Below are positions 9,841-45,958 of a stretch of DNA of 64,000 bases, piece by piece. Each line of letters begins with the position of its first letter. Within the stretch, counting starts at the first letter, position 1. Under the pieces are notes generated by a model. That model did no database searches. It had not been told where the DNA came from and saw only the letters and a program-made list of their open reading frames with translations. Origin of the DNA: an uncultured delta proteobacterium (GTDB lineage Bacteria > Myxococcota_A > Polyangia > Polyangiales > Houyiibacteriaceae). Position numbers and translations under genes: made by a program. The stretch lies in the NCBI GenBank assembly GCA_963746475.1, contig CAVVBB010000002.1, positions 785,079 through 849,078 on the forward strand. The letters run 5' to 3'.

Positions 9841-9855
9841 TCCGCCCGTCGGCAC

Positions 9856-9882: not shown

Positions 9883-9902
9883 GACCAAATGAGCGGAGCC
9901 GC

Positions 9903-11535
<1,633 letters not shown>

Positions 11536-12672: not shown

Positions 12673-12857
12673 AGCTCCACCAGGACCGAGGAATGCTTCA
12701 CTGTACCGTATCGAAGCGTTCCACCCCATAGGGGTCTGAAGCTGCGAGTCGAATCGCGTCCGCTTTGTGCCCCGGGCAGACGCGCATCGGGCCGAAACGG
12801 CGGCGCCTCGCATAAGAGTGATGACAGCGGCAATCGTGTTCGATAACGTCGCAGTCC

Positions 12858-17175: not shown

Positions 17176-17181
17176 GCAGCG

Positions 17182-25498: not shown

Positions 25499-28400
25499 AT
25501 GTTGAAGCAACGTGCTTTTCAGTGGGCGGGCTTGATTGCCTTTGGCGTTGCGGCAGCGACGGCCGTTCCGGTCAGTGCGGTGTCGGACCGCAACTTGTAT
25601 GAACGTGGCCAGATGCCTCCCGGGGCAGACACGTCCGCGGCCATGGGTCATGTCAACGCGATGATGCAGGAGCGTTTCGCGCAGGCCGGTGGCCCCGCCG
25701 ATCGTACCGTGACGGCGTTCGCAGAAGATATCGTGAAGACGCTGCCATTGATTCCCGGTGCTACGGTCATCACCTATCCGGTGGTCACGCCCGCCGGTAA
25801 TCTGTTGCAGGGCACTGGGCGAGGCATCGGATTTTCGCACATCACGGTCCACGAACCAGTCACCGGAAGGATCATCTGGGCGACGCCTCGTTACATCGGA
25901 CCCCTTGACTATGCGACTCAGCGAACTGTCGGGCCGGGCGCGTATCTCGGCGGGTACCCGATTGTCATCAACGACCCGAGCAGTGCGGCCTACAACTGGG
26001 CCGCCATCAGCGATGGTTACAACGTTTGGTCCTTCGAAGCCGATACGGGTGCCGTGAATTGGATTGCCTCCCAGGGCGACTGGGCGCCCGGTCCGCAGCG
26101 CATCAGGGAAGAACCCCTGCGTCAGAGGAGCATGTCCAACGACATTCCGATTGGCGTGCAGCCCCTTCCCGGGTCTCGAGCCCCTTCGGGCGAGCCGCTC
26201 GTGGGCTCTTTGTTCACCCGCGGTAACTTCGCCTATGTCGACGCTTCCTCTGGTGAGCTCATCATCTTGCAGAACGGCGACGTGGGTAACATCGCTCGCG
26301 GCTACCAAGCTCCGATCCTCTATCTGATCATCGACCTGCTCTGCTTCCCTGGCGGCCAGCTTTCGCTCGAGTTCAAGGACTGGTGCTCCGCGTTCGTGTA
26401 CACGCGTTACTTCTCGGCAAACACCGTCATGGCGGACCCCATCCGTAACCGCGTCACGGTCACCTACGCCGGTGACGGCCAAACCTTCGACCGGTTCATG
26501 ACCTGGGAGTTCAACACGGACGAAAATGGCCTGGTTCCGGCGGATGCGGACCTCGCCGACGGTGAGTCGCCGGCCATGTCGCTCGCATGGTCGACCAACT
26601 TCGGCCTCAACAGCGGCGCCACGCCGACCTGGTCGGACTCGGGTGCGGTCATCTTTGGCGTCGACGGCGCGGGCATCACGAATGCCTTCAACGCGAACGA
26701 CGGCACGGTCATCGTTTCATCGACCGGTGGCGGCGCAGGCTTCTCGCCGAGTACCGACCATAATGACCAGCTCGTCATTTGCTCTCCGGAGGCGGGTCTC
26801 GCCTACGTCAGCTCCAAGGACGGTCGATTCATCTGGCAGAACGACGGCGGCGACCTGGGCGTCCAGCACCTTCCCGTGACGCCCGATTCACCTCTGCTCG
26901 TCAACGGACGACCGAAAGCAGAGTGCGTCGGCTTCCCGGCGACACACCCGGACGTCTTCAACGCGCAGTTCGTGATGGGCTATCCCGTCACGCTCTTCGA
27001 GGCCCTCGCGGCGCTCGGTATTCCGCTTCCCAGCACTGTCACCAGCGCGGCCGTGGCGGACTTCTCCGCGAATGCCCGCACCGGCGAGACCGTCGAGACG
27101 CTGCATCGCTCGATCTACAACGGCAGCGGCGAGGCGAGCACCGGTATGCTGGACAGCGGTCGTGCACTGTCGGGTCGCGTGGATGCTGTGGCATCGATCG
27201 CTGCGGGCATCCTGAACCTTCTCTTGCCGAGGCGGTTCGACATTCCGCCGGCTGAGGGCGGCTTCGTGATTATTGAGCCAGACAGCTTCCGCGAATCCAT
27301 CCAGAACCAGTTCAAGGGCGCGGAGATCTACTGTAACGAAATCGTCAATGGCCTGGTCATTCCTGGAGACGCCGGTGGCGAAAGCATTCCGGCACTGGCC
27401 TCGGCCGACTTCGAGCTGCCGAGAGGCGAAAACGAGGAACGACTGCTGCAGCTCAGCGTCAACAAGATGGGGTACATCAACTCCATCATGAAGAACTCGA
27501 TTCCACCTCGCATGGATTCGGCGTCCAGCCGCAATCCCTCTGAGCTCAACGACCTGGGCCGAGCGGGTGTGGACGCGTTCCGCAATGCCATCATCGCGAA
27601 CACCACCGCGGCACGTGACCTGATGCTCGGCGGCGACGCCACGTATCCGGCCGGCTGCGGTTCGGACGAGTTTTGCAACTGGGGTCGCTCTCACGAGCCA
27701 ACCGATGCCGAGCGCGAGCAAGCCTCGGCAGCGATGGAGAACGCTTGCCGAGCGGCGCGGAGCGCTCAGATTCTGTTGAGCTTGCCCGTGTCCCCTCCGA
27801 GGAGTCCCCCGGAACCGGAAATTCCCGCGAGCTCATGCATTGTCGAATACGACCTGGACTGGACCCTCCAGTCCAGCGACTCTCCTGGTGGAATCGTCGA
27901 CGGGTTCACGACAGACCTTCCCGGCAGCATGATCCTCAAGTACGCCGACGACGGCGCGGGCAACATCCAGCCGGGTCGAGTCGAGATGATGTACATCTGG
28001 GTGGCCGCGAACATCCTTTTTCAAAAGCCGGGCGCTCCCACTGTGACCATCCAAGGTCACGGGTTCTCGCCAAGCTGCAATGGAGAGGCTGACCCGGACT
28101 GGTCTGACCCCGCGAGCATCCCAGAGGTCTGCGAGTACAACGGCGATCTCGAGACCCAGAACCCCATCGCCATCGGTACGCTAAATGAGTCTGGCGCGGT
28201 AATTGACTGGCAGGGCTGTGCAGTGCCTAGCAGCTATTGGGCGGAGGACAGCGCAAGCTTCACGATCGCGGATGCCGAGACTGCCAGCGGCCGTGGCTGT
28301 GTCGCTCTCAAGGTCGGGAACACTGGAGCCGATGCAGAGATCCCGACCGAGCAAGGGCAGTTCAGTCTGTACGCGGACGTCAACTGCGACGGCTCGAAGA

Positions 28401-28681
28401 TCGTCTGCGGCGCGGCCGGAGTGGAGCCAGGCTCGAACACTATCGCGCTGCAGTGGCCGCAAGCGCTCATCAATGGAACCGCTGCGAGCGGTCAGAACGG
28501 CTTGATCGTGGCGGAAGACGCTCAGAAGTCGACCGTCTTCTTTCCGGGCAGCAGCACGGACGGAAGCGAGAGCGCCCAGGGTGGCTATCAGTCCTTCAAC
28601 ATCCCGAACCCGTTTCCGGCCCGCACCTGGCTAGGCGCGAGCGGCGTTCGCCTCGAGGGCGGATTCACCACCTGCAACTAA
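25499..28681 (+). CDS. Giant secreted protein A (1060 aa); N-terminal roughly 700-aa module paralogous to protein B, unique roughly 285-aa Cys-containing C-terminus
   Basis: GAGAGGGAG lies upstream of ATG 25499. The signal peptide is MLKQRAFQWAGLIAFGVAAATAVPVSA. Long colinear identity blocks are shared with 29086..32907, for example DRNLxERGQMPP, [54 protein letters not shown] and [22 protein letters not shown]. Confidence 0.75.
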   Translation: MLKQRAFQWAGLIAFGVAAATAVPVSAVSDRNLYERGQMPPGADTSAAMGHVNAMMQERFAQAGGPADRTVTAFAEDIVKTLPLIPGATVITYPVVTPAGNLLQGTGRGIGFSHITVHEPVTGRIIWATPRYIGPLDYATQRTVGPGAYLGGYPIVINDPSSAAYNWAAISDGYNVWSFEADTGAVNWIASQGDWAPGPQRIREEPLRQRSMSNDIPIGVQPLPGSRAPSGEPLVGSLFTRGNFAYVDASSGELIILQNGDVGNIARGYQAPILYLIIDLLCFPGGQLSLEFKDWCSAFVYTRYFSANTVMADPIRNRVTVTYAGDGQTFDRFMTWEFNTDENGLVPADADLADGESPAMSLAWSTNFGLNSGATPTWSDSGAVIFGVDGAGITNAFNANDGTVIVSSTGGGAGFSPSTDHNDQLVICSPEAGLAYVSSKDGRFIWQNDGGDLGVQHLPVTPDSPLLVNGRPKAECVGFPATHPDVFNAQFVMGYPVTLFEALAALGIPLPSTVTSAAVADFSANARTGETVETLHRSIYNGSGEASTGMLDSGRALSGRVDAVASIAAGILNLLLPRRFDIPPAEGGFVIIEPDSFRESIQNQFKGAEIYCNEIVNGLVIPGDAGGESIPALASADFELPRGENEERLLQLSVNKMGYINSIMKNSIPPRMDSASSRNPSELNDLGRAGVDAFRNAIIANTTAARDLMLGGDATYPAGCGSDEFCNWGRSHEPTDAEREQASAAMENACRAARSAQILLSLPVSPPRSPPEPEIPASSCIVEYDLDWTLQSSDSPGGIVDGFTTDLPGSMILKYADDGAGNIQPGRVEMMYIWVAANILFQKPGAPTVTIQGHGFSPSCNGEADPDWSDPASIPEVCEYNGDLETQNPIAIGTLNESGAVIDWQGCAVPSSYWAEDSASFTIADAETASGRGCVALKVGNTGADAEIPTEQGQFSLYADVNCDGSKIVCGAAGVEPGSNTIALQWPQALINGTAASGQNGLIVAEDAQKSTVFFPGSSTDGSESAQGGYQSFNIPNPFPARTWLGASGVRLEGGFTTCN

Positions 28682-28903
28682 CGATCGACGCGATCCTGCC
28701 GTGCGTAGTCGCGGTGCCCGGTCGCAACGGACGACGCGATTTCTTCCATGTACGCATGGGTGTGGCGAGATCGACAGTCTCGTCGCTGGCGTTGCTCGTC
28801 GGGACGTTGCTGGCTTGGCTGCGTGCTGCGCGAGGCTGGGCCGTCCCAGCGGAAAGCTGTTCTGTCGCAGGGCACGCGCTCCTTGTTTCCTCCGTCCGGG
28901 TCG

Positions 28904-28909
28904 TTGACA
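28904..28909 (+). promoter_or_regulatory. Possible -35 hexamer (TTGACA) upstream of pqqA
   Basis: TTGACA lies 57 nt upstream of the pqqA ATG. Only a weak -10-like element (TAGAGC) follows. This is speculative. Confidence 0.2.
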
Positions 28910-28965
28910 GATTCTCTGGGCGGGTAGAGCCTAGCTGGTGGATGGTGGACTCCTGGAGGCTAGCG

Positions 28966-29079
28966 ATGAAGATCAACCGACGCCGTCAAAACAAACCGGC
29001 CGTGAAACGGTGGAGCAAGCCTGCATATCAGGACCTTCGTCTCGGCTTCGAGTACACTCTGTACGTGATGACTCGGTAG
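28966..29079 (+). CDS. pqqA: PQQ precursor peptide PqqA (37 aa; alternative GTG start 29002 gives 25 aa)
   Basis: The translation is MKINRRRQNKPAVKRWSKPAYQDLRLGFEYTLYVMTR. The C-terminal 23 aa match canonical PqqA (compare P. aeruginosa [23 protein letters not shown]), including the Glu-x3-Tyr pair. GGAGG lies 6 nt upstream of the ATG. pqqBCDE lie downstream. Confidence 0.85.
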   Translation: MKINRRRQNKPAVKRWSKPAYQDLRLGFEYTLYVMTR

Positions 29080-29085
29080 GGCGTC

Positions 29086-32000
29086 ATGAGGAGCTCGCGG
29101 CTTTCGCTCTGCCTCCTGATTCTGGTGACCCTCGCGCTATGGACCGACCGCGCCTCGGCTGTCACCGACCGCAATCTGACCGAGCGAGGTCAGATGCCTC
29201 CCTTCGCCGACACGGTGTACCCCGTCATTCACAGCAACGCCCTGCAGCAGGAGAAGTACGCGCAGGGTGGCGGACCGGCGGACCGCAGCGTGCAGACTTT
29301 CGCCGAGGGCATCGTCAAGACTCTGCCGCTGATTCCCGGCGCCTCCCTCGCCATCGGACCTTCCGTTCTTCCCAACGGAAACTTCGTGGCGGCCACGGGC
29401 CGCGGCATCGGCTTCAGTAGCCTCACCGTGCACGATCCGTTGACCGGTGCCATCGTCTGGATGGCGCCTCGGTACCTCGGCCCTGCTGACTATGCGCTAC
29501 GAAGGACGGTCGGCCCCTGGGCCTACGCCAGCGTTCCGGCGATCGATGCACAGGGTGGCATCTACATCGACGACGCTTTCAACTTCTGGAAGTTCGATGC
29601 GGACGGCGGCGTGCTCTGGGTCACCGACCACAGCGCGCTACCCGCGGGGCCCCAGCGGCTGAGCGAGGAGCCGCTCCGTCCGCGGAACATGAGCAACGAC
29701 TTCATTCCGACGGCGACCTTCGCGCCGGATGCGATTCGCTCTGCCGAGGGGAACAACCTCTGGGGCGGCGTCTGGTCGCGGGGTAGTGTCGTCTGGCTCG
29801 ATGCGGAGACGGGGGAGCCGGTCATCGTCAAAAGCGCCGGCCTCGCTACGTCCTTTCAGTCACCGATTCTGTTTCTCATCATCGACTTGCTCTGCTTCCC
29901 GGGCGGCCAGGTGGCGCTGGAGATCAAGGACGTCTGCTCGGCGGCCATCTACACGCGCTACTTTTCCTCCAACACCACGGCCATCGATCCGGTCCGTAAC
30001 CGCTTCTCGTTCACCTACGCCGGCGATGGTGCGAGCGTCGATCAGCTCAAGACCTGGGAGTTCGTGACCGAGGCGGGCTCGGGGCAGGCCGGGCGGGTTA
30101 CGTCGGTGGATACGGATTCCGATGGCTTCGGCGACTCTGGCGTCAGGGAGGTCTGGGCACAGCCGTTTGGTGTGAACACGGGCGCCACGCCAACGATTTC
30201 CGACACCTTGTCTGTGATTTACGATGTCGACGGGAGCGGCGTCAGCTTCGCGTTCGACGCGGATGACGGAACCATCCTTTCGAGCTCGAGCGGGGGCGGC
30301 ACTGGTTTCTCCCCGAGCACGGACCATGAGGATCAGCTCGAGGTCTGCTCTGCGGCGTTGGGACTGGCGAAGCTGGACGGATTGACCGGGCAGGTCCTTT
30401 GGCAGAACCCGGCGGAAGGCCTGGGGTTGGAGCACCTGCCGGTCGTGCCGGACGCGCCGCTGGCGGCCTCGGGAAGGCCCGCGGCGCAGTGCTCCGGCTT
30501 CGCTTCCGTGCATCGCGACGTCGTGACGGGCCAGTTCGTGCTGGGCTATCCCGTTCGGCTCCTAGAGGCTTTGGCAGCGCTCGGTATTCCGCTTCCGAGC
30601 ACGGTCACCAGTAGAGCCACGGTGGACTTCTCCGTGGACAACCGGACCGGAGCGAGCGTCGATGCCAAACTTCGCTCGCTGTACAATGGAAGTGGGGAGG
30701 CGCAGGTCATCCCGCAGGACAGCGGCCGCTTCACCTCGACCCGGGTAGACGCGGTGGCGGCGATCAACGCTGGTATCCTGAACCTGCTCCTGCCCCGGCG
30801 CTTCGACGTTCCGCCGGCCGAAGGCGGCTTCGTGATCTCGGAGCCCTACAGTTATCGGCAATCGGTGCTGAGCCAGCTCGACACGGCCGCCATGTACTGC
30901 GCGGACGTGCTGGACCTCCTTCCCAACACGGGCACGACCCCGGCCGATGAGCAGGCACGACAGATTGCCGTCAACAAGTCCCGGTACCTCAATTCGATCG
31001 TGAAGAGCTCGCTGCTCGGCCGAGTGGAAAGTGGCAACCGCCGACAGCCGCCGGAGTTCGGTGACGTCGAAGTCGACCAAATCGAGATCGCCGTCGACGA
31101 GATCATCGCGACCACGGACCTCGCCATCGAGCTTCTCTTGCAGGCCGGACCGAACGCGCCTGACCAGGAGTCGCAGGATCTCGCGAGGCAGGCCATCGAT
31201 CAGAGCTGCCGGAGCATCGCGAGCATTCGGGAGAAGATCGACGTGCCAGTCCCCCCGCCGGGTATGACTCCGAACTGTAGGAACGCGCCGAGGAAGGTGG
31301 AGCCGACCGCCATTCTGTCGAACGGCTGGGGCTATGATCTTGCGAACACGCGTGCACGGGATGCCTCTGAGACGACCCTGTCCGGCGACAACATCGGCCA
31401 GCTCGAGCTGAAGTGGGCCTTCGTGTTTCCCTTCGAGCCGGAGCGGCGCGCGCCGCCGATCGTGACTGAAAATGCGGTGTTCGCTGGCAGCATGGGCGGT
31501 GGCGTGTACGCGATCGATCGCGTGACTGGATGCGAGATTTGGCGCGCGAAGACTCGCGGTCTGGTGCGCACTGGGCTCGTCATGGGGCCGGGCCCAGACG
31601 GCGAACGACTCATCTACTTTGGCACTATCGGCGGCGAGGTCCGGGCCATCCGGGAGCGAGATGGCAAACTGGTTTGGCGGACACAGATCCTGTCGAACCG
31701 TGAAGTCCCCGTGTCGGAAGGTTTTCTCTACCGGATCGCCAACCTGCTGAGCTTTCACCGCGCCGACCCCACGATGCTGACCGGAACCCCGAGCCTGCAC
31801 GACGGGGTCCTCTACGTGCCGGTGTCCACGCGTGAGTCGTTCGGGGCGGCGGTGCCGATCCGGCCTTGCTGTTTTGCGTCCGGAAGCGTCGTCGCGCTGA
31901 ACGCCCAGACGGGGGAGAGCCTCTGGAGGACGGATACGATCGACGAAAGGGCGACTTTCAATTTGTCGACGGGGCAGTGGGCGCCGGCTGGCGCCGGCGT

Positions 32001-32907
32001 ATGGAACAGTCCGACGATCGATCCGGACCGGCGCCTGCTCTACTTCGGCACGGCCCAGAATTACTCCCGACCGACTTCGGATGGCACGAACTCGGTCTTC
32101 GCCCTCGACCTCGATACCGGTGATGTGCGTTGGCGTTTCAAGGGGGAGTTCGACGACGCCTGGAACGTCGCCTGTGCTCTGCCCCTTCCAGCCTTGCTCG
32201 GGCGGAACTGCCCGCCAGAGGAAGAGCTCAACCGTGACTTCGACTTCGGGTCTTCACCGATTCTCGCGAACCTACCCGGTGGCGGGCAGCTGCTTCTAGC
32301 AGGGAACAAGGGTGGCCTCGTGCACGGATTGGATCCGGACACGGGAACGCTGGTTTGGCGCACCCGCGTCTCGGACGGTGGGACGCTGGGTGGGGTGCAT
32401 TTCGGAATGGCTTATGACGGCTCTTCCGTGTACGCCGCCACGACCGATGCCCTGCTCACCATTCCCGGGACCGACGATCTCGGCGACCTGTTGCAGACCA
32501 TCTTCCGGCTGGACTTTTCCTTCACTCCCACACCGACCGGCCGGCCGGGTATCTACGCGCTCGACGCAGCCACGGGCGCCGAGCAATTCGTCGCGAAAAG
32601 CACCTTCATCAACGAGGATGGCGAAGAGCAGCAGTCTCCATACTCCGCCGCGCCTTCGATCATCCCAGGGGCCTTGCTCGCCGGGTCCTTGGACGGCTTC
32701 GTACGCGCGTTTTCGAGCACGGATGGACGCCTCCTCTGGGAGTTCGATACGGCCCAGGCTTTCATCAGCCCCGACGGGCGCAGCGGGCAAGGTGGTTCGA
32801 TCGCTGTCGGTGGTCCCATCGTCGCCGGAGACATGATGTTCATTGGATCGGGCTCGCTTCTCGAAGGGGAGTCCGGCAACGTGCTGTTTGCCTTCGGTTT
32901 GCCCTAA
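29086..32907 (+). CDS. Giant secreted protein B (1273 aa): unassigned roughly 700-aa module plus a C-terminal PQQ-dependent dehydrogenase-type beta-propeller
   Basis: The signal peptide is [25 protein letters not shown]. The N-terminus is paralogous to protein A. From about aa 735 the sequence reads [33 protein letters not shown], then repeated xGxVxAxDxxTGxxxW blades, with a vicinal Cys pair ([22 protein letters not shown]) as in quinoprotein dehydrogenases. It is tightly packed between pqqA (6-nt gap) and pqqB (26-nt gap). Confidence 0.8.
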
Positions 32908-32933
32908 CGAACGGTGTACCATCCAAACCCAGC

Positions 32934-33848
32934 ATGCGGGTACGCGTTCTCGGGTCTGGAGCGGGCGGCGGCTTTCCTCAGTGGAACTGCAACTGCAGCA
33001 ACTGCGCTGGCCTCCGCGCCGGGTCGTTGAAGGCACGAGCCCGTACCCAGTCCTCCATCGCGGTCAGCGCCGACGGGGAGGCATGGGTCCTGTTCAACGC
33101 CTCTCCTGACATTAGGCAGCAGCTGCTGGAGTTTCCCTCGGCGCAGCCTGCGCGCGCCGTGCGAGACACGGCAATCTGTGGGGTCGTGCTGATGGATGCT
33201 CACATCGATCACACCGCAGGGCTCCTGATCCTGCGTGAGGGTGAGCCGCTGGACGTGTATTGCACGGAACCCGTGTACGAGGATCTCACGACGAGTCACC
33301 CGGTGCTCGTCCTGCTGGAGCACTTCTGCGGGGTGCATCGTCGGCGCATTCCTCTGGGCCCCGAAGAGAGTTTTGCAGTGGAAGGGGCGCCCGGCCTGCG
33401 GTTCACAGCCTGGCCGCTGCAGAGCAAGCCTCCGCCGTTTTCTCCTCACCGTAACCACCCCCGAGCGGGGGACAACATCGGGATGCTCATCGAGGACGAG
33501 CAAAGCGGGGGTAGCCTGTTTTATGCGCCGGGGCTGGCCCGTGTCGACGAAGCGCTTCGACGTCGATTCTCCGAGTCCGACTGCCTGCTCGTCGATGGAA
33601 CCTTCTGGAGCGAGGACGAAATGCTGCGTCACGGAGTGGGTGAGAAGCGAGCCGGAGACATGGGACATCTGCCGCAATCCGGGGAGGGCGGCATGATGAG
33701 CGTCCTCGCTCCGCTTAAGGACACTCGCCGGGTGCTCATTCACATCAACAACACCAACCCCATTCTGGATGAGGCCTCTGCCGAACGGGCGGAGCTGCGG
33801 GCCGCAGGGATCGAGGTCGCTCACGATGGAATGGAGTTCGAGCTGTGA
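32934..33848 (+). CDS. pqqB: PQQ biosynthesis protein B (metallo-beta-lactamase fold)
   Basis: [28 protein letters not shown] is the canonical PqqB N-terminus. Its operon position also fits. Confidence 0.9.
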
Positions 33849-34558
33849 TGAGCGACCCGCCTTGGAGCGAAGCCGAGTTCGTCGAGCGCCTGAGGGCCAA
33901 GGGCGAAGGCTACCATCTCAATCATCCCTTCGAGCGGATGCTTCGGGAAGGCCGCTTGAATGAAGCGCAGCTGCGCGGCTGGGTTGCCAATCGCTACCTC
34001 TACCAGATCAGGATTCCCCTCAAAGACGCGGCGATTTTGTCCAATTGTCCGGACCGAGAGGTTCGTCGCAAGTGGATCGTGCGCATCCTGGAGCAGGACG
34101 GAAGACAGGCCGGGGAAGGCGGCAATGAAGCCTGGATACGTCTCGGTGAGGCCTGCGGGCTGAGTCGAGAGGAAATGCTGAGCGAACAGCACGTGCTCCC
34201 CGGCGTACGTTTTGCGGTCGACGCCTATGTCCACTTTGCGAGAACGCGTCCCTGGCAAGAGGCGGTCTGCGCCTCGCTCACCGAGCTCTTCGCCCCGGGT
34301 GCGCATCAGGCTCGCCTGGAGGCTTTCCCCAGGCACTACCCCTGGGTGGACCCAGAAGCCTTGGCCTACTTTCGGAGAAGGCTGAGTGAGGCACCCAGGG
34401 ACGTGAACCACGGCCTGGAAGTCACGCTGCGGCACTTTCGTGTCCGTGCGCAGCAGGAGCGAGCGCTGCAGATCCTTCAGTTCAAGCTCGACGTGCTCTG
34501 GTCGATGCTGGACGCCATCTACCATGCTTACGTCACGGAGTCCGGGGGCGGGGAATGA
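33845..34558 (+). CDS. pqqC: Pyrroloquinoline-quinone synthase PqqC
   Basis: [51 protein letters not shown] matches PqqC. The start (GTG 33845 or ATG 33848) overlaps the pqqB stop. Confidence 0.9.
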
Positions 34559-34839
34559 GCGCGCGCTGCGAGCCCGCTGACCGCATCGTCATGGCGCCCC
34601 ACTTTCGTCTGCAGTGGGAGGAGGCGCAGCAGCGTCACGTGCTTCTCTACCCGGAGGGCATGGTCCGCCTGAACGACTCCGCGGCCGAGGTTTTGGTGCT
34701 GTGTGCAAACGGAACCTCGTTCGGCAGTCTCCTAGAGACCATGAGGGCCCGATACCCGGTGGACGAGATCGAGGGCGACGTGCGAGAGTTCTTGCAAGAG
34801 GCAGCGTCCAATGGCTGGGTCCGCATCGAACGAAGCTAG
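34555..34839 (+). CDS. pqqD: PQQ biosynthesis peptide chaperone PqqD
   Basis: 94 aa, with [34 protein letters not shown] typical of PqqD. There is an ATGA overlap with pqqC. Confidence 0.85.
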
Positions 34840-35935
34840 TTCGCCCCTGTGGCTGCTCGCAGAGCTGACCTACCGCTGCCCGCTGCAGTGTTACTACTGC
34901 TCGAACCCCGTCGACTTCGCGAGGCACCGCGAGGAGCTGAGCACTGCGCAGTGGCTAAGCGTCCTTCGTGAAGCTCGCGAATTGGGCGTCGTGCAGCTCG
35001 GGTTCTCGGGCGGGGAGCCCTTGCTTCGTCAAGACTTGGAGATGCTCGTGACCGAGGCCAACGGGCTCGGCTACTACACGAACCTCATCACTTCGGGCAT
35101 GGGCATGAACGAGGCCCGCCTGGCCCGCTTGAAAGAGGCGGGTCTCGATCACATCCAGCTCAGCTTCCAGGCAAGCCGCGCCGAGCTAAACGACTCCATC
35201 GGGGGCGCAAAGAGCTTCGAGCACAAGCGGCAGCTCGCAGGGCTCATCAAGGCACATGGCTACGCGATGGTCCTCAACTTCGTGCTGCACCGAGAAAACA
35301 TCGATTCGGTGGAGGAGATGCTGGAGCTCGCGGAAGCCCTCGGCGCGGACTACGTGGAACTGGCGAACACACAGTACGGCGGCTGGGCGCAGCTCAACCG
35401 AAAGCTCCTTTTGCCTAGCGCCTCCCAGCTCGAGCGTGCGGAAGCCGTGACACGGGCGTTCCGCGAGCGGGCCGGTGAGGATATGCGCATCTTCTACGTG
35501 GTCTCCGACTACTTCGAGGGCAGACCCAAGCCTTGCGCGGGAGGCTGGGGTCGGCTGTTCATGCAAGTGACCCCCGATGGCACCGTGCTGCCCTGTCATG
35601 GTGCGCGGGACCTTCCCGGGCTCAGCTTTCCCAAGGCCCAGGAAAACGACCTGCGCTTCATCTGGGAGGAATCGCCGCTGTTCAAACGCTTCCGTGGGCA
35701 GGACTGGATGAAAGAGCCCTGCCGAACTTGTCCGAAGCGCGCCGAAGACTTTGGAGGCTGTCGCTGTCAGGCATTCCTGCTCACTGGCGACCCGGAGAAC
35801 GCCGACCCCGTCTGCGCGCTGTCTCCGCATCACGCGCTGATTTCGGAGGCCATTACAGCGGCGGAGGGGGCGAACCGATCCGAGCTGCTTCCGATTCTTC
35901 GAAACGCACGCAACTCGCGTTCACAGACTGACTGA
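34811..35935 (+). CDS. pqqE: PQQ biosynthesis radical-SAM enzyme PqqE
   Basis: The radical-SAM cluster motif is LTYRCPLQCYYCSNP. The C-terminal SPASM-type cysteines are CAGGWG...CHG...CRTCPKRAEDFGGCRCQ. Confidence 0.9.
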   Translation: MAGSASNEASSPLWLLAELTYRCPLQCYYCSNPVDFARHREELSTAQWLSVLREARELGVVQLGFSGGEPLLRQDLEMLVTEANGLGYYTNLITSGMGMNEARLARLKEAGLDHIQLSFQASRAELNDSIGGAKSFEHKRQLAGLIKAHGYAMVLNFVLHRENIDSVEEMLELAEALGADYVELANTQYGGWAQLNRKLLLPSASQLERAEAVTRAFRERAGEDMRIFYVVSDYFEGRPKPCAGGWGRLFMQVTPDGTVLPCHGARDLPGLSFPKAQENDLRFIWEESPLFKRFRGQDWMKEPCRTCPKRAEDFGGCRCQAFLLTGDPENADPVCALSPHHALISEAITAAEGANRSELLPILRNARNSRSQTD

Positions 35936-37104: not shown

Positions 37105-38451
37105 TCACCCATCTAGGTCCTCGAGGCTGGGCGCTACCGGATAGGAAAGGCGCTCGGGGACATCGGCTTGGTTCGCTTCGCCCGACCGCGTCAGCGCATG
37201 TCTGAGAACGACCGGCATGAGCACTTCGTCGAACGCGACCACCGCGAAGAGAAGTGCGCTAGCCGGCTCACCGAAGTCCGGAAAGGCTTTGCGGACGAGC
37301 AATGCTAGGGCCAAAGCGAGCCCCGCTTGCGGGAGCAGTCCGGTCCAGGCCCAACGACGAACCTCGATCGGCGCGTTGACCCCCAAAGTGCTGACGGCGC
37401 TGGTCAGCCAGAAGCTCGCGGCACGCACAGCGACCAGAATGAGCGCAACGGCCCCGACCTGAAGCATCAAAGGCAAGCGAATGCTCGCGCCCGCCACGGC
37501 AAAGAACACCAAGTAAACGGGCAATGACGCCCATTCGAGCTTTCGAATGAGCGGAAAGCTCTCGGTCTCGGGGAAGTTTGCGATGCATACGCCCGCCGAG
37601 AGCATGGTGATGAGCGGATCCAATGCGACCCGCGGGCCGATTTCGGCGACGACGATGCACCATAGAAGAACAAACAAGGAAATGCGCTGACGAACGTGCC
37701 TCAAGTAGAGCGCGAGCACGAAACCTATGGCCGCCCCAACGCACATGGATCCAAACAGTTCCCAGAGGACGGCGAGGATCGTATCGAGAGCGTTCGCGAC
37801 GCCACCCGTGGTCGCACGCGCCGCCGCAGAAGTGGCGGCGAAGAGCACGATGACGACGAGATCTCCGATGACCACGGTCCCCAAGATAGTGCGGCTCAGA
37901 GGCCCGTCAGCTTTCGTCTCGCCGAGCAGTGCCATCACGGCCGCAGGGGACTGCGCGGTCAATACCACGCCTAGCATCAGGCAGATCCAGCCCAGGGCCA
38001 AGCCCTCAAAACCCCTCAAGAAAGAGGTCATGGGCGCCGTCCAGAAGAGCGCCGCAGCGAGCGCGATGGCTGTGATCGGCACGGCGCCGAGGCTGAGCCT
38101 CAGCACGACCCGCAACACGGGACGCAAACGTTCCAAGCTCAGCTCTCCACCAGCGGTGAGAGCAATGAGGCAAATCGCCACCCCATTGACCAGGTCGAGC
38201 TGATGGGCCGCCGTTTCGGAAACGAGGCCCAGAGCATCGGGCCCAGTAATCATGCCAGCCAGGAGATAGCCGACGAGCCGGGGAAGGCCAATTTGCGCGA
38301 GCAAGTCACCAGTAAAGAATGCTGCGAGGAGTAGAAAGCCGAAGGACAAAGCAGTGCCCGCTATCCCGTGCACGTCGGCACCCCCGGGCAGTAGACTTTG
38401 AGCCGCTTGGAGCAGCAGACAGAGGAACAGGAGAATCAACAGGCTCCTCAT
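37105..38451 (-). CDS. Cation:proton antiporter (Na+/H+ exchanger family, CPA2-like)
   Basis: Starts at MRSLLILLF, with an ATGA overlap with the upstream gene's stop. GLPRLVGYLLAGMITGPDALGL plus about 12 TM segments are typical of the sodium/hydrogen exchanger family. It is the C-terminal 448 aa of the 883-aa track ORF. Confidence 0.75.
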   Translation of the reverse strand: MRSLLILLFLCLLLQAAQSLLPGGADVHGIAGTALSFGFLLLAAFFTGDLLAQIGLPRLVGYLLAGMITGPDALGLVSETAAHQLDLVNGVAICLIALTAGGELSLERLRPVLRVVLRLSLGAVPITAIALAAALFWTAPMTSFLRGFEGLALGWICLMLGVVLTAQSPAAVMALLGETKADGPLSRTILGTVVIGDLVVIVLFAATSAAARATTGGVANALDTILAVLWELFGSMCVGAAIGFVLALYLRHVRQRISLFVLLWCIVVAEIGPRVALDPLITMLSAGVCIANFPETESFPLIRKLEWASLPVYLVFFAVAGASIRLPLMLQVGAVALILVAVRAASFWLTSAVSTLGVNAPIEVRRWAWTGLLPQAGLALALALLVRKAFPDFGEPASALLFAVVAFDEVLMPVVLRHALTRSGEANQADVPERLSYPVAPSLEDLDG

Positions 38452-39720
38452 CGGTCGACTCCCCGCCGATGCAGGACCTCGGCCAAGATCGCCCCTCCGA
38501 GCACTGCGGTCACAATCCAAGAAATGGCTCGACCGCGGTACATGCCTTGTGCGCTGATAACGATGGCGATCGAGACGATGCTCACTGGAGGAGCGAGCAA
38601 GAACATGCGACGTGAGGATGTTGAGGATGTGTCCCCGTGCTGGCGAACCAGCCATTCGGCAAAGAAGTTCCCGAGGCCCCGGCTTACGACAAAGACGGGA
38701 ACCAGGACCCAGCCGCGCCATCCGGTGATGTCCCACAGAGCCCCGACGATCGTCAGGAACAGGTAGTAAATCGGTCGCTCGAGTTGGGTGAGGAGCCTCC
38801 ACAAGCGCTGCTTGTGCGCCCCTGGCAAGTTGACGAGCAGGGCCCCTACGATGAAGCAAATCACCAGCGGGGAGAGCAGCAGAAACCCGGCGATCCCCGC
38901 GGCAAATGCGACGGAGCCCAGGCACAGCGCGAAAAACTGAGGCCCCTGCCGAGACCCTGCGACAATCGCGTGTGTCAGAAGGCCGACCGCGGTGCCGACC
39001 CCGAGCGTCAGCAGCAACCAAACGGTACCAGGGAGTTTCCAGACAAACTCGACCCACAGCGGCCTGAAGAAGGCCCCGAGGAGAGCGAGCCCCGCCACTG
39101 CAACGATTCTCGTCCATAAACTCGAGACGTCGGGCGAGCTCGCGCTCGGAACCCTTCGGGTTCCACAGCCCGGGTCGGTCCGCGACGCTGGAAGCTGTAA
39201 TGGCTCCCGCCGTCGCCAACACGAGGGCGTCACGCAAGAACTTCCCATCGGCCCAACTCTCACCGAGGGCGAGCATGACGGCGCTCCCCGCAAGTCCGAC
39301 AGTGGCGAACGGAATGAGGGAGCGCAACGCCACGTCGAGCGCCGTTCCACGTGGTGCGCGCTCGAGCACGCGAGCATCGAATTGAAATCCGATGATCAGG
39401 CCCAGCCACCCTAAGGCGAAGTGCACGAGAGGCGTAAGGTCTCGCAGAACTTTGTCGTCGAGGATGCCGACGCGAGGCTGGCGCGCGATGAGTCCAAGAA
39501 TGATGAAAGGAAGGCCGCCTGTAATAATCTGGCGTACGCCGATACGCTCTTCGAGTCGACGCACGGCTGGGTGACCACCGGCCCACCCCAGAGTCATCAG
39601 AAGCAATAGCCCCAAGACGGTCTTGAGCACGAGCCCGGTGTCGTGCGATTTCTCCTGGATGCCGCTGGCCGACGCGCCCTGAGCACTCATGAAGAGTACA
39701 AAAGCCAAACCACACCGCAT
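38448..39720 (-). pseudogene. Second cation:proton antiporter paralogue with a reading-frame break near 39110-39125
   Basis: The N-terminal roughly 200 aa are TM-rich (...GLPFIILGLIARQPRVGIL...LATAGAITASS...ELARRLEFMDE) and lie in the frame of the 883-aa ORF. The TM-rich continuation (IVAVAGLALLGAFFRPLWVEF...LHRRGVDR*) lies in the frame of track ORF 38448..39377. The first frame downstream of the break is Arg/Pro-rich nonsense. Confidence 0.65.
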
Positions 39721-39826
39721 CGGCCATTGTACATCGGATCGGGCAGCCCCACTCACGTTCCTTGCACCGGTTTCATCGCGATGGCTGTCTCATGGAGGAG
39801 ACACTGCAACTGGGCACCCTAGGGAA

Positions 39827-41026: not shown

Positions 41027-44000
41027 ATGCTGCTTCGGCTTTGGATGAGGTTTTTCGTCGGATTCCTGCTCGGCTTCGCGTTGGCAACACAGTCGAGCGC
41101 GCAACCGTACGGCTTGGATGCGCCTCAGGCCGTGGGCCCGTTCCTCGACGGCGTGATGCCCGACAAGACTCCGCAAGATCCCGGAAGCTCGACGTGGCAG
41201 GTGGTGGACGCGTTTCAAGTCGCGGTCCCGAATACGCTGGTCATCGAGCCCAACCCCGCCGACAACCGCTTGTACGTCGGCTCGCGAGGCGGCGTCATCG
41301 TCTCGTTCGAGAACGACGAGCTCGCCACTGATCCGCCTGAAGACTTCATGGACATCTCGGACCGGGTGGCAGTCGTCTGGGACGGCGGCTTTCTCGGTCT
41401 CGCCTTTCACCCGCTGTTCGGAGGCGTCATCTCGGCGCCCGAAGACCCGATCGAGTACGAAACGACCTTCTACGTGTACTACTCCTCGTACTGCCCAACG
41501 ACGCTCGTCGGATCGAGCTACGTCAACGATTGGGCGAACTGCAACCCCGGCTATCCACAGGGCTCGAGATCGGGTTTCTTCAACACCTGGCTCCGGCTTT
41601 CGCGCTTCGAAGCGTACTGGGACGATGTCGCCCAAGTCTGGCGTGGCGACCCGAGCAGCGAGGAGCCGATGTTCAACGTCCGCCTCTACAACGGCTCGCA
41701 TCGAGGTGGCGGGCCGGAATGGGGAGCGGATGGAAAGCTGTACCTGATGGTCGGCGATCAGTTTCGCTACGACACCGCACAGGATATCGTCGACAGCTTC
41801 GAAGGTGGCTCGCTCCGACTCGAGGCCGACATCATCGACAACGGCGACGGCACCTGGGACTGCCCCGTAGGGAGTCACTTCGCGATCCGCACCATGCAGG
41901 ACGTGACCGGCAACGCCGACGAGATGACCGGTCACCGATACTGCATTCCGGACGACAACCCTTGGCCAGGTTGGTCGGGTGAGAACTTCGGTGAATACAA
42001 CAGCATCGGACACCGAAATCCCCACCGCATGACTCTCGATCCGGTCTCTGGCCTTCTCTGGTCCGGTGAGGTCGGACAAAGCGCCCGCGAGGAAATCAAC
42101 ATCATCACTACGGGGCGCAATTATCAGTGGCCTTACATGGAGGGTTACGCGACGGGAGTGCGCGCAAAACCAGCGTTCATCATCGGCCAGGAGCAGCCGC
42201 CCGTGGCCGATTTCGATCGGACCGAGGCGCGCACCATCATCGGCGGATATGTGTACAGGGGCACTCGCTTCCCCGAGCTGTCGGGGCTCTACATCACGGG
42301 CGACTATTCCACGAACAACATCTGGGCGCTGACGCTCGACATGAACACGATGACGGCGACGAAACAGCTGCTCACGACCTTCCCCCCTGGTTCGCTAGGG
42401 ACTTTCGGTCAGGACAACGCTGGTGAGATCTATCTGGGTGACGTGGTCGCGAACATTCCCCTGCAGCGGCTCGAACGTAGCGGTGGCGCCGTGCCCGATC
42501 CGCCAGCGCTCCTCTCGCAGACCGGAGCCTTCCTGGACACTGCGAACTTCATCGTAAACCCGGCCGCCGTACCTTATGACCTGGTCCCGTTCTGGTCGGA
42601 CGGTGCGTACAAGCAGCGTTGGATCTTCCTTCCGAACGACGGCACGCACGACGCACCGGATGAGCAAATTTCCTTCTCGTCCGATTCGAACTGGGGCTTC
42701 CCCGACGGGACGGTCGCCATGAAGCACTTCGAGCTCGGCCTGAACGAGAACGATCCAAGCAATCGCGTTCGCCTTGAGACTCGAATGATCGTGCAGGGGG
42801 TGGACGGAAAGGTCTACGGCGTGACCTATCGCTGGCGCCCAGATCAGCTCGACGCAGACCTCCTCTCCGTCGCGGAGACGGCGGACTACAGCATCCAATT
42901 GGCGGGCGGCGGAACCCGAACGCAGACCTGGCTCTTCCCCTCCCGTGCCGAATGCTTGCAATGTCATACCGATGGTGCGGGCGGGTTCCTGGGGCTTCGA
43001 ACGCACCAGCAGAACCGTGAGATGACCTACCCGAGCACCGGTCGTACGGACAATCAGCTCAGAACCTGGAACTCCCTCGGCATGTTCAGGCCAGCGCTGA
43101 ACGAGACCGACATCCCGAGCTATCCGCAGTCCGCACGTCTCGACGATGTCACGGCGTCGTTGGAGACCAGGGTGCGCTCCTGGCTGGACTCGAATTGCTC
43201 GAACTGCCACCGACCCGAAACCGGGAACCGCGCCGCCTTCGATGCCCGCTTCACGACCCCACTGAGCAGCCAGGGCCTCGTCTGGGGGGGCGCCCTCGAC
43301 GACCTCGGCATCAGTGAACCGTACTTGGTCTCTCCTGCAGACCCGAGCGCCTCGGTCGTGCGCGTGCGGGCCGCAGCCGCGGGAGGCTCCGGTATCAAGA
43401 TGCCGCCGCTCGCCAAGGAGCTGGCCGAGCAACCTGCCGTCGATCTACTCGACGAGTGGATCACACGGTTGGACCCTGGTTATCCGCGTACCGGCCTCAA
43501 CTACGCGTACTACGAGGAAGTCGAGCTTTCCGTGCTTCCGAACTTCGATGCGCTCACGCCGGTCGCCAACGGTGCCACGCCCACAATCGACATCTCGGTG
43601 CGACTGAGAGACGATGACTTCGCCTTTCGTTTCACCGGTTACATCGAAATTCCGGAAGCCGGTGACTGGACCTTCTATACGAGCTCGGACGACGGCAGCC
43701 AGCTTTTCATCGACGGGACCCTAGTCGTCGACAACGACGGTTTGCACGCAAACGAAGAACGTTCCGGAACCATCAACTTGGCTGCCGGCTTCTACGAGAT
43801 CGTGGTCACGATGTTTGAGCGGGCCGGCGAGCAGGTCCTGACGGCAAGCTGGTCGCACGAAAATGTACCGAAGCAGTTCATTCCAGGCGGCCGCCTGTAT
43901 CTGCAGCTGCCTGGACCGATCGACAACGAGCCCCCGGTGCTTTCCTCGCCAGGTCCGCAGAGCAATGTCGAGGGTGAGAGCCTTCTGCTTGCGCTGAGCG

Positions 44001-45958
44001 CCACCGACCCAGACGGCGACTTGCCGTACTACGAAGCGGCTCCGCTGCCCGCTGGACTGTCGATCAACAAGCAGACCGGCGAGATCTCCGGCACCATCGA
44101 GTTCGGCCAAGTCGGCGTCTTTTCGGTGGACGCAAGTGTGAGCGACGGCCCGGAGATCTCAGTGGTGCACTTCGACTGGACAATCACTGCGGCCGGACTC
44201 TGCCAGGGCGTCGACTGCCCCGATGCCGATCCCGAGGACTGTATCGTAGGAGAGTGCGATTCCCAGGATGGCCTCTGTTACGACGTCCCAGTCGCCGACG
44301 GCGCGGCCTGCGACGTCGGCGGCCTCGCAGGGCTCTGTAGTGCTGGAAATTGCGAGACGAGCGATCCGTGTGAGAGCTCGCAGTGTGACGACGGAAACGA
44401 GTGCACGCTGGACAGCTGTGATTCCGGAACCGGGCTCTGTTCGATGTCAGCGCTGCCCGATGACACGCCTTGCAGCCTAGGGAGTTGTCAGTCCGGCGTG
44501 TGCCAGTCTGAAACGGCGGCTTGCGACGGCATGCCGGCGCGCACGCCATGCGGGGTCGGGGGCATCTGTGACTACCGCGGCAACTGCATCCCCGGAAACC
44601 TTTGCGACGGGGTCGACTGTAACGACGGCAATGAGTGCACCTGGGACGGCTGTGACCCGGTGGGCGGCGTCTGTGCGAGCTCCCCGGTCACCGACGGCAC
44701 AGCGTGCAGTGGCGGGGCAGGCACCTGCACCGGCGGCCTTTGCGACGCGGCGCCTCCGCTTTGCGAGGGCGTGGACTGTAACGACGGCAATGAGTGCACG
44801 GAGGACCGCTGTAACCCCCAGAACGGAAGCTGCCTCAATCCGAGTGCAGGACTGAACGGCACTCCCTGTGGGGGCGGCAGCGGCAGATGCAATGCCGGAA
44901 GCTGCGAGCCAAACCCGACCGATTGCACGGGGCGCGCCGCGCGCACGCCATGCGGGGTCGGGGGCATCTGTGACTACCGCGGCAACTGCATCCCCGGAAA
45001 CCTTTGCGACGGGGTCGACTGTAACGACGGCAATGAGTGCACCTGGGACGGCTGTGACCCGGTGGGCGGCGTCTGTGCGAGCTCCCCGGTCACCGACGGC
45101 ACAGCGTGCAGTGGCGGGGCAGGCACCTGCACCGGCGGCCTTTGCGACGCGGCGCCTCCGCTTTGCGAGGGCGTGGACTGTAACGACGGCAATGAGTGCA
45201 CGGAGGACCGCTGTAACCCCCAGAACGGAAGCTGCCTCAATCCGAGTGCAGGACTGAACGGCACTCCCTGTGGGGGCGGCAGCGGCAGATGCAATGCCGG
45301 AAGCTGCGAGCCAAACCCAAGCGATTGCACGGGGCGCGCCGCGCGCACGCCATGCGGGGTCGGGGGCATCTGTGACTACCGCGGCAACTGCATCCCCGGA
45401 AACCTTTGCGACGGGGTCGACTGTAACGACGGCAATGAGTGCACCTGGGACGGCTGTGACCCCGTGGGCGGCGTCTGCGCGAGCTCCCCGGTCACGGACG
45501 GCACGGCGTGCAGTGGCGGGGCAGGCACCTGCACGGGCGGCCTTTGCGACGCGGCGGCTCCGCTTTGCGAGGGCGTCGATTGTAACGACGGCAATGAGTG
45601 TACGGAGGACCGCTGTAACCCCCAGAACGGAAGCTGCCTCAATCCGAGTGCAGGACTGAACGGCACTCCCTGTGGTGGCGGCAGCGGCAGATGTAACGCC
45701 GGCAGCTGCGAGCCTAACCCGACCGATTGCACGGGGCGCGCCGCGCGCACGCCATGCGGGGTCGGGGGCATCTGCGACTACCGCGGCAACTGCATCCCCG
45801 GAAACCTTTGCGACGGGGTCGACTGTAACGACGGCAATGAGTGCACCTGGGACGGCTGTGACCCCGTGGGCGGCGTCTGCGCGAACTCTCCTGCGACCGG
45901 AATCGTATGCAATGGCGGCGCTGGCACCTGCGATGCGGCGGGAAATTGCCTCCCCTGA
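41027..45958 (+). CDS. 1643-aa secreted mosaic: PQQ-dependent (soluble glucose/sorbosone) sugar dehydrogenase-like propeller, two CxxCH haem-c motifs, PA14 domain, cadherin-like Ig domain, myxo-type Cys-rich repeats
   Basis: The signal peptide ends ATQSSAQ. The propeller has GFLGLAFHP, HRGGGPEWGADGKLYLMVGD, GHRNPHRMTLDP and GEVGQSAREEINIITTGRNYQWPYMEG. The haem motifs are CLQCH and CSNCH. The PA14 domain has FRFTGYIEIPEAGDWTFYTSSDDGSQLFIDG. The cadherin-like domain has ATDPDGDLPYYEAAPLPAGLSINKQTGEISG. Repeated CxGVDCNDGNECTxDxC modules follow. Confidence 0.8.
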   Translation: MLLRLWMRFFVGFLLGFALATQSSAQPYGLDAPQAVGPFLDGVMPDKTPQDPGSSTWQVVDAFQVAVPNTLVIEPNPADNRLYVGSRGGVIVSFENDELATDPPEDFMDISDRVAVVWDGGFLGLAFHPLFGGVISAPEDPIEYETTFYVYYSSYCPTTLVGSSYVNDWANCNPGYPQGSRSGFFNTWLRLSRFEAYWDDVAQVWRGDPSSEEPMFNVRLYNGSHRGGGPEWGADGKLYLMVGDQFRYDTAQDIVDSFEGGSLRLEADIIDNGDGTWDCPVGSHFAIRTMQDVTGNADEMTGHRYCIPDDNPWPGWSGENFGEYNSIGHRNPHRMTLDPVSGLLWSGEVGQSAREEINIITTGRNYQWPYMEGYATGVRAKPAFIIGQEQPPVADFDRTEARTIIGGYVYRGTRFPELSGLYITGDYSTNNIWALTLDMNTMTATKQLLTTFPPGSLGTFGQDNAGEIYLGDVVANIPLQRLERSGGAVPDPPALLSQTGAFLDTANFIVNPAAVPYDLVPFWSDGAYKQRWIFLPNDGTHDAPDEQISFSSDSNWGFPDGTVAMKHFELGLNENDPSNRVRLETRMIVQGVDGKVYGVTYRWRPDQLDADLLSVAETADYSIQLAGGGTRTQTWLFPSRAECLQCHTDGAGGFLGLRTHQQNREMTYPSTGRTDNQLRTWNSLGMFRPALNETDIPSYPQSARLDDVTASLETRVRSWLDSNCSNCHRPETGNRAAFDARFTTPLSSQGLVWGGALDDLGISEPYLVSPADPSASVVRVRAAAAGGSGIKMPPLAKELAEQPAVDLLDEWITRLDPGYPRTGLNYAYYEEVELSVLPNFDALTPVANGATPTIDISVRLRDDDFAFRFTGYIEIPEAGDWTFYTSSDDGSQLFIDGTLVVDNDGLHANEERSGTINLAAGFYEIVVTMFERAGEQVLTASWSHENVPKQFIPGGRLYLQLPGPIDNEPPVLSSPGPQSNVEGESLLLALSATDPDGDLPYYEAAPLPAGLSINKQTGEISGTIEFGQVGVFSVDASVSDGPEISVVHFDWTITAAGLCQGVDCPDADPEDCIVGECDSQDGLCYDVPVADGAACDVGGLAGLCSAGNCETSDPCESSQCDDGNECTLDSCDSGTGLCSMSALPDDTPCSLGSCQSGVCQSETAACDGMPARTPCGVGGICDYRGNCIPGNLCDGVDCNDGNECTWDGCDPVGGVCASSPVTDGTACSGGAGTCTGGLCDAAPPLCEGVDCNDGNECTEDRCNPQNGSCLNPSAGLNGTPCGGGSGRCNAGSCEPNPTDCTGRAARTPCGVGGICDYRGNCIPGNLCDGVDCNDGNECTWDGCDPVGGVCASSPVTDGTACSGGAGTCTGGLCDAAPPLCEGVDCNDGNECTEDRCNPQNGSCLNPSAGLNGTPCGGGSGRCNAGSCEPNPSDCTGRAARTPCGVGGICDYRGNCIPGNLCDGVDCNDGNECTWDGCDPVGGVCASSPVTDGTACSGGAGTCTGGLCDAAAPLCEGVDCNDGNECTEDRCNPQNGSCLNPSAGLNGTPCGGGSGRCNAGSCEPNPTDCTGRAARTPCGVGGICDYRGNCIPGNLCDGVDCNDGNECTWDGCDPVGGVCANSPATGIVCNGGAGTCDAAGNCLP
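44539..45957 (+). repeat. 402-bp (134-aa) in-frame tandem repeat, three full copies plus a partial fourth
   Basis: The landmark GCGCACGCCATGCGGGGTCGGGGGCATCTG recurs at 44539, 44941, 45343 and 45745, spaced exactly 402 bp. Copies 1 and 2 differ by eye only in one codon pair (ACC GAT vs AGC GAT region). Copy 3 carries scattered, mostly synonymous changes. Confidence 0.9.

Follow-up and report, generated by a model that had tools for sequence, protein, structure and literature searches.

Why does a gene of 3.8 kb lie between pqqA, which encodes the precursor peptide of pyrroloquinoline quinone (PQQ), and pqqB in the genome of an uncultured delta proteobacterium, and what could its product be for? 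The locus lies in a stretch of 64,000 nucleotides (nt) of contig CAVVBB010000002.1, to which we refer as the window, and the gene between pqqA and pqqB encodes a protein of 1273 amino acids (aa). The sequence suggests a six-gene operon that would supply both PQQ and one dedicated, exported dehydrogenase of the polyvinyl alcohol dehydrogenase (PVADH) clade, in which the haem domain would be replaced by a rare module; we give this reading a probability of roughly 0.65. We favor a PQQ user within the operon because the gaps between the genes are short, the pqq genes pass their family cut-offs, the C-terminal part of the large protein retains hallmark motifs of its clade, and enzymes of PQQ-dependent type recur as neighbors of pqq genes in three other loci (L083, L084 and L047).

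The genes concerned are the following, the five pqq identities coming from NCBIfam equivalog models with curated cut-offs, which all five genes pass.

28966-29079, forward strand: pqqA, 37-aa PQQ precursor (TIGR02107, 30.9 bits, cut-off 20)
29086-32907, forward strand: large open reading frame (ORF) of 1273 aa, ATG at 29086, taken from the ORF list and raw sequence
32934-33848, forward strand: pqqB (TIGR02108, 419 bits, cut-off 245)
33845 (GTG) or 33848 (ATG) to 34558, forward strand: pqqC (TIGR02111, 339 bits, cut-off 240)
34555-34839, forward strand: pqqD (TIGR03859, 83 bits, cut-off 46)
34811-35935, forward strand: pqqE, radical SAM/SPASM protein (TIGR02109, 526 bits, cut-off 381)

The original prediction had named these five pqq genes and given junction coordinates, spacings of 6 and 26 nt, and the overlaps between pqqB and pqqE; the names hold at equivalog level, and all positions, including the 29-nt overlap of pqqD and pqqE, were reproduced from the ORF list and raw sequence. 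The stop codon of pqqA is followed after 6 nt (GGCGTC) by the start of the large ORF, whose stop codon is separated from the pqqB ATG by 26 nt. The distance from the pqqA stop to the pqqB start is 3854 nt, and pqqB does not directly follow pqqA. The pqqB/pqqC junction reads GTGATGA, an overlap of 4 nt if pqqC starts with GTG at 33845 and of 1 nt if it starts with ATG at 33848; an independent gene call on a Logan contig uses the ATG, giving 236 aa. pqqC and pqqD share ATGA at 34555-34558, and pqqD and pqqE overlap at 34811-34839. A convergent DUF1330 gene (Pfam) lies 3' of pqqE, and G+C content is uniform across the cluster (0.63-0.66).

The pqqA product translated from the window, MKINRRRQNKPAVKRWSKPAYQDLRLGFEYTLYVMTR (37 aa), has the E-X3-Y core as EYTLY within GFEYTLY and is the only match to the PqqA motif in the whole 64-kb window. 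It shares the core W-x-K-P-x-x-x-D-x-R-x-G-x-E-x-x-x-Y with PqqA of the canonical systems and differs from canonical PqqA by a longer basic N-terminal leader and the unusual tail EYTLY..MTR. The canonical pqqABCDE(F) operons of Klebsiella pneumoniae, Pseudomonas, Methylobacterium and Gluconobacter contain the same five genes with pqqB, C, D and E in the same order and with overlaps, whereas the window has the 3.8-kb gene between pqqA and pqqB and no pqqF. An M16 peptidase of the PqqF/G type had been reported as lacking in the window, and indeed no Pfam match to one was found among window ORFs of at least 400 aa; it is ordinary for pqqF/G to be missing from the surroundings of the operon.

The large gene had been described as a 3.8-kb quinoprotein gene. 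This description fits residues ~746-1273, which form a PQQ-type propeller, but not residues 26-720, which belong to a different and very rare propeller family. By these models the 1273-aa protein consists of a pair of PQQ_2-type propellers in tandem with a helical bundle between them, divided as follows.

29086-29160, forward strand: putative signal peptide, residues 1-25, cleavage after ASA, read from the translation
29161-30852, forward strand: N-terminal beta-propeller, BamB/PQQ_2-like, residues ~26-589, by AlphaFold2 and Foldseek
30853-31245, forward strand: helical bundle ending the N-terminal module, residues ~590-720, by AlphaFold2
31321-32907, forward strand: C-terminal eight-bladed propeller of PVADH-clade PQQ-dehydrogenase type, residues ~746-1273, by PF13360/PF01011

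In Pfam searches, the quinoprotein-like part is confined to the C-terminal ~530 aa, with 108.4 bits to PF13360 (cut-off 27.6) and 76.7 bits to PF01011 (cut-off 26.7). This domain has 3228 homologues at E<=1e-10, and the best of them outside its close relatives are ~40% identical proteins of 540-660 aa, labelled "polyvinyl alcohol dehydrogenase (cytochrome)" and mostly carrying a cytochrome c domain. Such quinohaemoproteins (for example P0018 and P0057, under a KEGG-style label) share with the C-terminal 530 aa an eight-bladed PQQ propeller, the motif S-x-x-E...C-C-x-x-x-G-S, DAWN and GGVHFGMA. We aligned 26 PVADH-type proteins with one close relative (P0007) and the query, 28 sequences together, and number C-terminal residues from the first codon at 31240, so that n corresponds to n+718 of the 1273-aa protein. 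Of the 137 columns with conservation of at least 85% across the clade, the domain retains 99, among them the vicinal Cys-Cys, the upstream Glu (E199), DAWN, K357 and GGVHFGMA; C210, C211, D306, N309 and K357 are invariant across all 28 sequences, query included. It looks like a divergent PVADH-clade member of the PQQ dehydrogenases and would be expected to bind PQQ.

The CxxCH motif of the clade lies N-terminal to the propeller and is present in ~88% of the aligned members. No CxxCH occurs anywhere in the 1273-aa protein, which differs from the clade in having a 700-aa propeller/helical module in place of the N-terminal cytochrome c, and by two insertions and the replacement of 38 conserved residues. 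The operon itself contains no cytochrome c gene. The nearest natural relatives of the C-terminal domain in the PDB are type II quinohaemoprotein alcohol dehydrogenases (ADHs) and PedH, and alignment to PedH places its Cys-Cys off the type I position. Scores for the methanol/ethanol-type family TIGR03075 (77.8 bits, cut-off 480) and for group A of the acidobacterial "empty quinoproteins", TIGR04528 (57.8 bits, cut-off 650), were both below cut-off.

The first residues of the protein look like a Sec-type signal peptide, which suggests that the 1273-aa protein is exported, and its homologues align from the residue just past the predicted cleavage site (AV[ST]DRN). Residues 26-720 have no Pfam or NCBIfam family above cut-off and no sequence match in the PDB. 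An AlphaFold2 model of this N-terminal module reached a predicted local distance difference test score (pLDDT) of 88 and a predicted template modelling score (pTM) of 0.91 with a 62-sequence alignment that includes distant 600-800-aa relatives carrying PF13360; an alignment of five sequences gave a pLDDT of 37. The model shows a beta-propeller followed by a four-helix bundle, with long helices at model residues 567-696 (pLDDT mostly >88), and this helical part is conserved in all family members.

The best Foldseek match of the N-terminal model was Rv3035 (PDB 9p3g) with a TM-score normalised to the target (TMt) of 0.79, and others were BamB (TMt 0.60-0.66), the designed eight-bladed Cake8, tetrathionate hydrolase and PQQ dehydrogenases. 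While the modelled fold thus resembles those of Rv3035 and BamB, the module is about twice as long as BamB and has a C-terminal four-helix bundle and invariant motifs of its own. The BamB model TIGR03300 scored 83.9 bits, below its cut-off of 285.2, and that match lies in the C-terminal, not the N-terminal, domain. The module probably acts in the binding of a substrate or partner.

A search of 5.8 billion proteins returned only six proteins matching the N-terminal module, and an exhaustive HMMER search gave seven cluster representatives at E<=1e-30 among 1.84 billion. The proteins P0001-P0006 represent a rare family of secreted type with a conserved ~700-aa module and interchangeable C-terminal modules. 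Mean column identity of the ~700-aa module is 72% across the family, with invariant motifs such as LLPRRFD.PPAEGG. The C-terminal parts are Cys-rich Dicty_CTDC repeats, fibrillin-like regions, an uncharacterised domain or, in the inserted gene alone, the PQQ propeller. A pattern scan of JGI metagenomes found no further members of the N-terminal family, and cluster look-ups for this family gave a function label for the distant P0131 only. P0128, considered as a further PQQ fusion, was rejected as it is the fibrillin-type variant.

A second member of the family is encoded immediately upstream, separated from pqqA by a spacer.

25499-28681, forward strand: upstream paralogue, 1060 aa (P0005), from ATG 25499; the mechanical ORF runs from GTG 25253
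28682-28965, forward strand: intergenic region of 284 nt, likely promoter/leader, read from the sequence

The product of the upstream paralogue carries a predicted signal peptide together with the N-terminal propeller and helical domain also seen in the inserted gene; aligned over 738 aa, it matches residues 24-715 of the large protein with 49% identity. Its C-terminal part has no NCBIfam or Pfam match and is unrelated to that of the inserted gene. P0004, from another genome, is an orthologue of the paralogue with 77% identity, the module being almost identical and the tails ~50% identical. pqqA lies between two paralogues of a rare propeller family. Neither the 1643-aa protein encoded downstream nor a 479-aa upstream ORF is similar to the inserted gene, and a candidate repeat (D9) was dismissed as a chance match.

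How unusual is this gene order? The comparison set consisted of the 80 best pqqB loci of species-representative genomes and the 80 best of metagenome contigs, from which we kept the 147 loci, other than that of the window, in which 400 nt or more precede pqqB, and located PqqA-motif ORFs in each. In 120 of the 147 (82%) pqqA lies 3-276 nt upstream of pqqB, at a median distance of 90 nt, and in none of the 147 are pqqA and pqqB separated by a quinoprotein gene. The remaining 27 loci (18%) depart from the canonical order. In six of these pqqA comes after pqqB in the same orientation, five in the order pqqB-pqqC-pqqA-pqqD (L013, L030, L048, L070, L103) and one after pqqD (L119); two have pqqA solely on the opposite strand (L047, L083); eight have no pqqA despite at least 5 kb of upstream sequence; ten have no PqqA motif, but in these the flank is short; and in one (L046) a PqqA-like peptide is encoded 5.5 kb before pqqB. 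The exact order of pqqA, enzyme gene and pqqB is therefore unique within this sample, in which about one pqq cluster in five is off the textbook order.

The claim that the order is non-canonical stands; the order is kept in two further assemblies described below and differs in the closest other loci, L083 and L084. The idea of an insertion into a canonical operon needs to be qualified. The exact order was seen nowhere else, but pqq gene order varies in 27 of 147 loci, and a user enzyme next to pqqB recurs. In the full-text literature we found no description of a pqqA-quinoprotein-pqqB order, although the main survey of pqq organisation lay outside this search and an earlier description is possible. 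The components are of known kinds; what is new, as far as sequences were sampled and literature was searchable, is the exact order, the tight junction between pqqA and the enzyme gene, and the fusion of two propellers.

Several other arrangements were observed in this comparison. The five loci with pqqA between pqqC and pqqD (L013, L030, L048, L070, L103) carry a distinct PqqA (W[QE]TPA[YF]CEIRLGFEVTAYVYVR). L046 is an AT-rich gammaproteobacterial locus (4376-11633) in which the PqqA-like peptide MKKWKKPLVVEKSVGMEINCYACADIS is followed by pqqD, pqqE, three more genes, a YNCE/lactonase-type propeller, pqqB and pqqC; it may represent a variant peptide-maturation cluster. Many loci of Burkholderiales type (L005, L006, L008, L011, L012, L024, L057, L090, L099, L100, L123, L130) have a second, oppositely oriented pqqA ~5 kb before pqqB, and tandem pqqA copies are found in L160 (three) and L150 (two).

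Sampling of the source lineage is sparse. In species-representative genomes pqqB identity reaches no more than 62-63% (Entotheonella and several Proteobacteria), and the closest pqqB loci are the metagenome contigs L083 and L084 with 70% pqqB identity; L083 also has 75% identity in pqqC and 69.5% in pqqE. The unusual PqqA tail GFEYTLY.MTR is common only to the window, L083 and L166, a contig discussed below. In L083 and L084 a gene for a GSDH-cytochrome c fusion is found directly 5' of pqqB (5844-7487 and 581-2365, respectively), its stop overlapping the pqqB start by 1 nt in L083 and preceding it with a 2-nt gap in L084. In L047, from an uncultured member of the Bryobacterales (10001-14124), a full-length PQQ alcohol dehydrogenase (PF01011, 354 bits) is encoded 19 nt after pqqB, with pqqD and pqqE divergent upstream and pqqA on the minus strand just before pqqC.

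Since all three loci have a PQQ-type enzyme gene abutting a pqq biosynthesis gene that lies on the same strand, a user enzyme embedded in the pqq cluster is a recurrent arrangement. PVADH-like genes elsewhere, by contrast, are not neighbors of pqq genes: P0007 is encoded on a 3.7-kb contig with no pqqB after it, and P0008, another clade member, is likewise away from any pqq gene. The enzymes differ from that of the window, as they have unrelated folds or belong to unrelated clades (six-bladed GSDH and type I ADH). The position of pqqA is also different: in the window it leads the enzyme gene by 6 nt, while in L083 and L047 it is on the opposite strand and does not precede the enzyme gene, in L083 at 12316-12384 beyond pqqE and an ABC transporter. 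These comparisons suggest that the principle of embedding is not unique, while the exact order in the window is, within the sample.

In the 284-nt spacer upstream of pqqA, TTGACA occurs without mismatch at 28904-28909, and a Shine-Dalgarno sequence, GGAGG, is found at 28955-28959, 6 nt before the pqqA ATG. Both are kept in L166, a 1.6-kb contig from run SRR21285552, in which the middle of the spacer has diverged and has an indel, and TTGACA also precedes pqqA in L083. The spacer is likely the promoter region of the operon, although a consensus scan called no full sigma-70 promoter there. Promoter and terminator matches between 25000 and 37200 were not above the expectation from shuffled sequence, and the promoter scan is insensitive in this organism, as it missed even the candidate pqqA promoter. 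RNA structure was not significant at the junctions of pqqA with the large ORF (z = +1.5) and of the large ORF with pqqB (z = -0.5), and Rfam gave no riboswitch or other known RNA element. The Shine-Dalgarno sequence of the large ORF is weak (GGTAGGG) and lies within the end of pqqA. Taken at face value, these expression signals are compatible with a single transcript and translational coupling.

We propose that pqqA, the 1273-aa gene and pqqBCDE would be read as one operon from a promoter in the 284-nt spacer, yielding both PQQ and one dedicated user of PQQ. The user would be a Sec-exported two-propeller protein, periplasmic or extracellular, in which the usual N-terminal cytochrome c is replaced by a BamB-like propeller and helical bundle. 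The 6-nt gap and the overlaps from pqqB to pqqE would allow translational coupling, and precursor peptide, apoenzyme and maturation enzymes might be produced together. From the gene arrangement and protein sequence we infer that the genes share one transcript, that the large protein is exported and that its C-terminal domain binds PQQ, as well as the role of the N-terminal module.

Some observations weigh against this proposal. pqqB has no recognisable Shine-Dalgarno sequence, and the last part of the large ORF contains a weak hairpin followed by a U-rich run (32874-32892); because of these two features, partial attenuation or an internal promoter in the 3.8-kb ORF is possible. In the C-terminal domain, 38 of the 137 clade-conserved columns are changed (for example R214S, D284N and W450F) and one Cys pair is lost. 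The PDB holds no PVADH-clade structure onto which PQQ ligands could be mapped, the top profile alignments being to designed propellers. Finally, pqqB does not follow the closest relative of the C-terminal domain (locus L001).

One alternative is that the arrangement is neutral: one gene of the rare propeller family gained a PQQ-type domain and came to rest between pqqA and pqqB by chance, and a promoter in the 3' part of the large ORF is the main driver of pqqBCDE, with enzyme and pathway expressed independently. The fluid order of pqq genes outside model organisms (27 of 147 loci non-canonical), with pqqA encoded by the other strand in L083 and L047 and missing within 10 kb in eight loci, speaks for this explanation, as do the missing pqqB Shine-Dalgarno sequence and a promoter scan insensitive enough to miss the candidate pqqA promoter. 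However, the 6-nt spacing between pqqA and the large ORF has been kept between strain variants while the upstream spacer diverged, the gap between the large ORF and pqqB is only 26 nt, and the presence of an unrelated PQQ enzyme 5' of pqqB in L083 and L084 points to selection for a PQQ user in this position. We consider neutral rearrangement unlikely.

The proposal of an operon that includes its own PQQ user could be taken further. One PqqA is consumed per PQQ and one PQQ is needed per apoenzyme, so that the 6-nt junction might be a stoichiometric coupling device matching precursor and user one to one, and the rare propeller family might be a new class of PQQ-linked extracellular proteins and not a passenger. 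This extension is speculative, and we regard it as rather improbable.

Another possibility is that the C-terminal propeller has lost PQQ binding and that the whole protein is a binding or structural protein and not a dehydrogenase. The 38 changed positions and the lost Cys pair could be read this way. Changes within the propeller are almost all common to P0007, the sole close relative (73% identity). The electron-accepting cytochrome c domain is missing with no cytochrome c gene in the operon to replace it, other proteins of the N-terminal family are fusions with adhesin-like Cys-rich repeats, and there is a weak match to the "empty quinoprotein" model TIGR04528. On the other hand, that score is far under the model's own cut-off while both PQQ Pfam models pass theirs, the Cys-Cys pair, the preceding Glu, DAWN, K357 and GGVHFGMA are all retained, and the gene is embedded in a complete pqq operon. 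Loss of PQQ binding seems to us quite unlikely.

The gene order itself was found in independent assemblies. An exact-sequence look-up retrieved the 1273-aa protein, without any difference, from a 13.8-kb Logan contig of run ERR15459714 that was assembled separately and in which the order is the end of the paralogue, the 37-aa pqqA, the 1273-aa gene, pqqB, pqqC, pqqD and pqqE. L166, found by a PqqA peptide search (PqqA 95% identical), shows the end of the paralogue, a spacer of ~300 nt, pqqA and, 6 nt beyond it, the first part of the large ORF; its DNA is 93% identical to the window, and its large ORF has 98% aa identity over 336 aa. The order is genuine and not an assembly artefact, because the same order was seen on an independent contig and the junction in a second sample. 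An assembly chimera, in which a gene of the propeller family was wrongly joined to the pqq operon, is effectively excluded: the genome does encode paralogues of the N-terminal domain, and repeats of this kind can confuse assembly, but the paralogues are just ~50% identical in protein and 72-79% in their best DNA stretches, the order is identical in the separate Logan assembly with the junction also present in a third sample, the reading frame is unbroken and composition is uniform.

The locus offers a clean natural case of a cofactor pathway that carries a candidate user enzyme in its operon, right behind the precursor-peptide gene. With its two tandem propellers, rare N-terminal family and no haem domain, the large gene is a strong candidate to encode a so far uncharacterised PQQ enzyme. 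Considered alongside L083, L084 and L047, the locus indicates that pqq clusters outside the Proteobacteria are less uniform than the textbook pqqABCDE, and annotation pipelines which expect pqqA beside pqqB should allow for such orders. Knowledge of how PQQ is made is unchanged by these findings.

Other genes of the window deserve a brief mention. The 1643-aa protein encoded at 41027-45958 (forward strand) combines a six-bladed domain of GSDH type, a dihaem cytochrome c of the SO2930 family (CLQCH, CSNCH), PA14, He_PIG and Cys-rich Dicty_CTDC repeats. It could be a second candidate PQQ enzyme, encoded 5 kb downstream of pqqE, and has no similarity to the GSDH-cytochrome c of L083. At 37105-39756 (reverse strand) lies the gene for an 883-aa protein with a Na+/H+ exchanger domain at residues 478-852 only and a long N-terminal part without a family match; the forward strand has a strong AT skew of about +0.3 in this interval. 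A weak match to a REP-associated tyrosine transposase at 2551-3558 (forward strand) scored 53.8 bits, under the cut-off of 80. Two overlapping genes at 47781-50202 (reverse strand) encode a circularly permuted ATP-grasp protein and a protein with an Alpha-E domain. A GMC-family flavin adenine dinucleotide (FAD) oxidoreductase of 518 aa, preceded by a 181-aa ORF without a family match, is encoded at 16630-18738 (forward strand), and the two may form a two-subunit periplasmic dehydrogenase.

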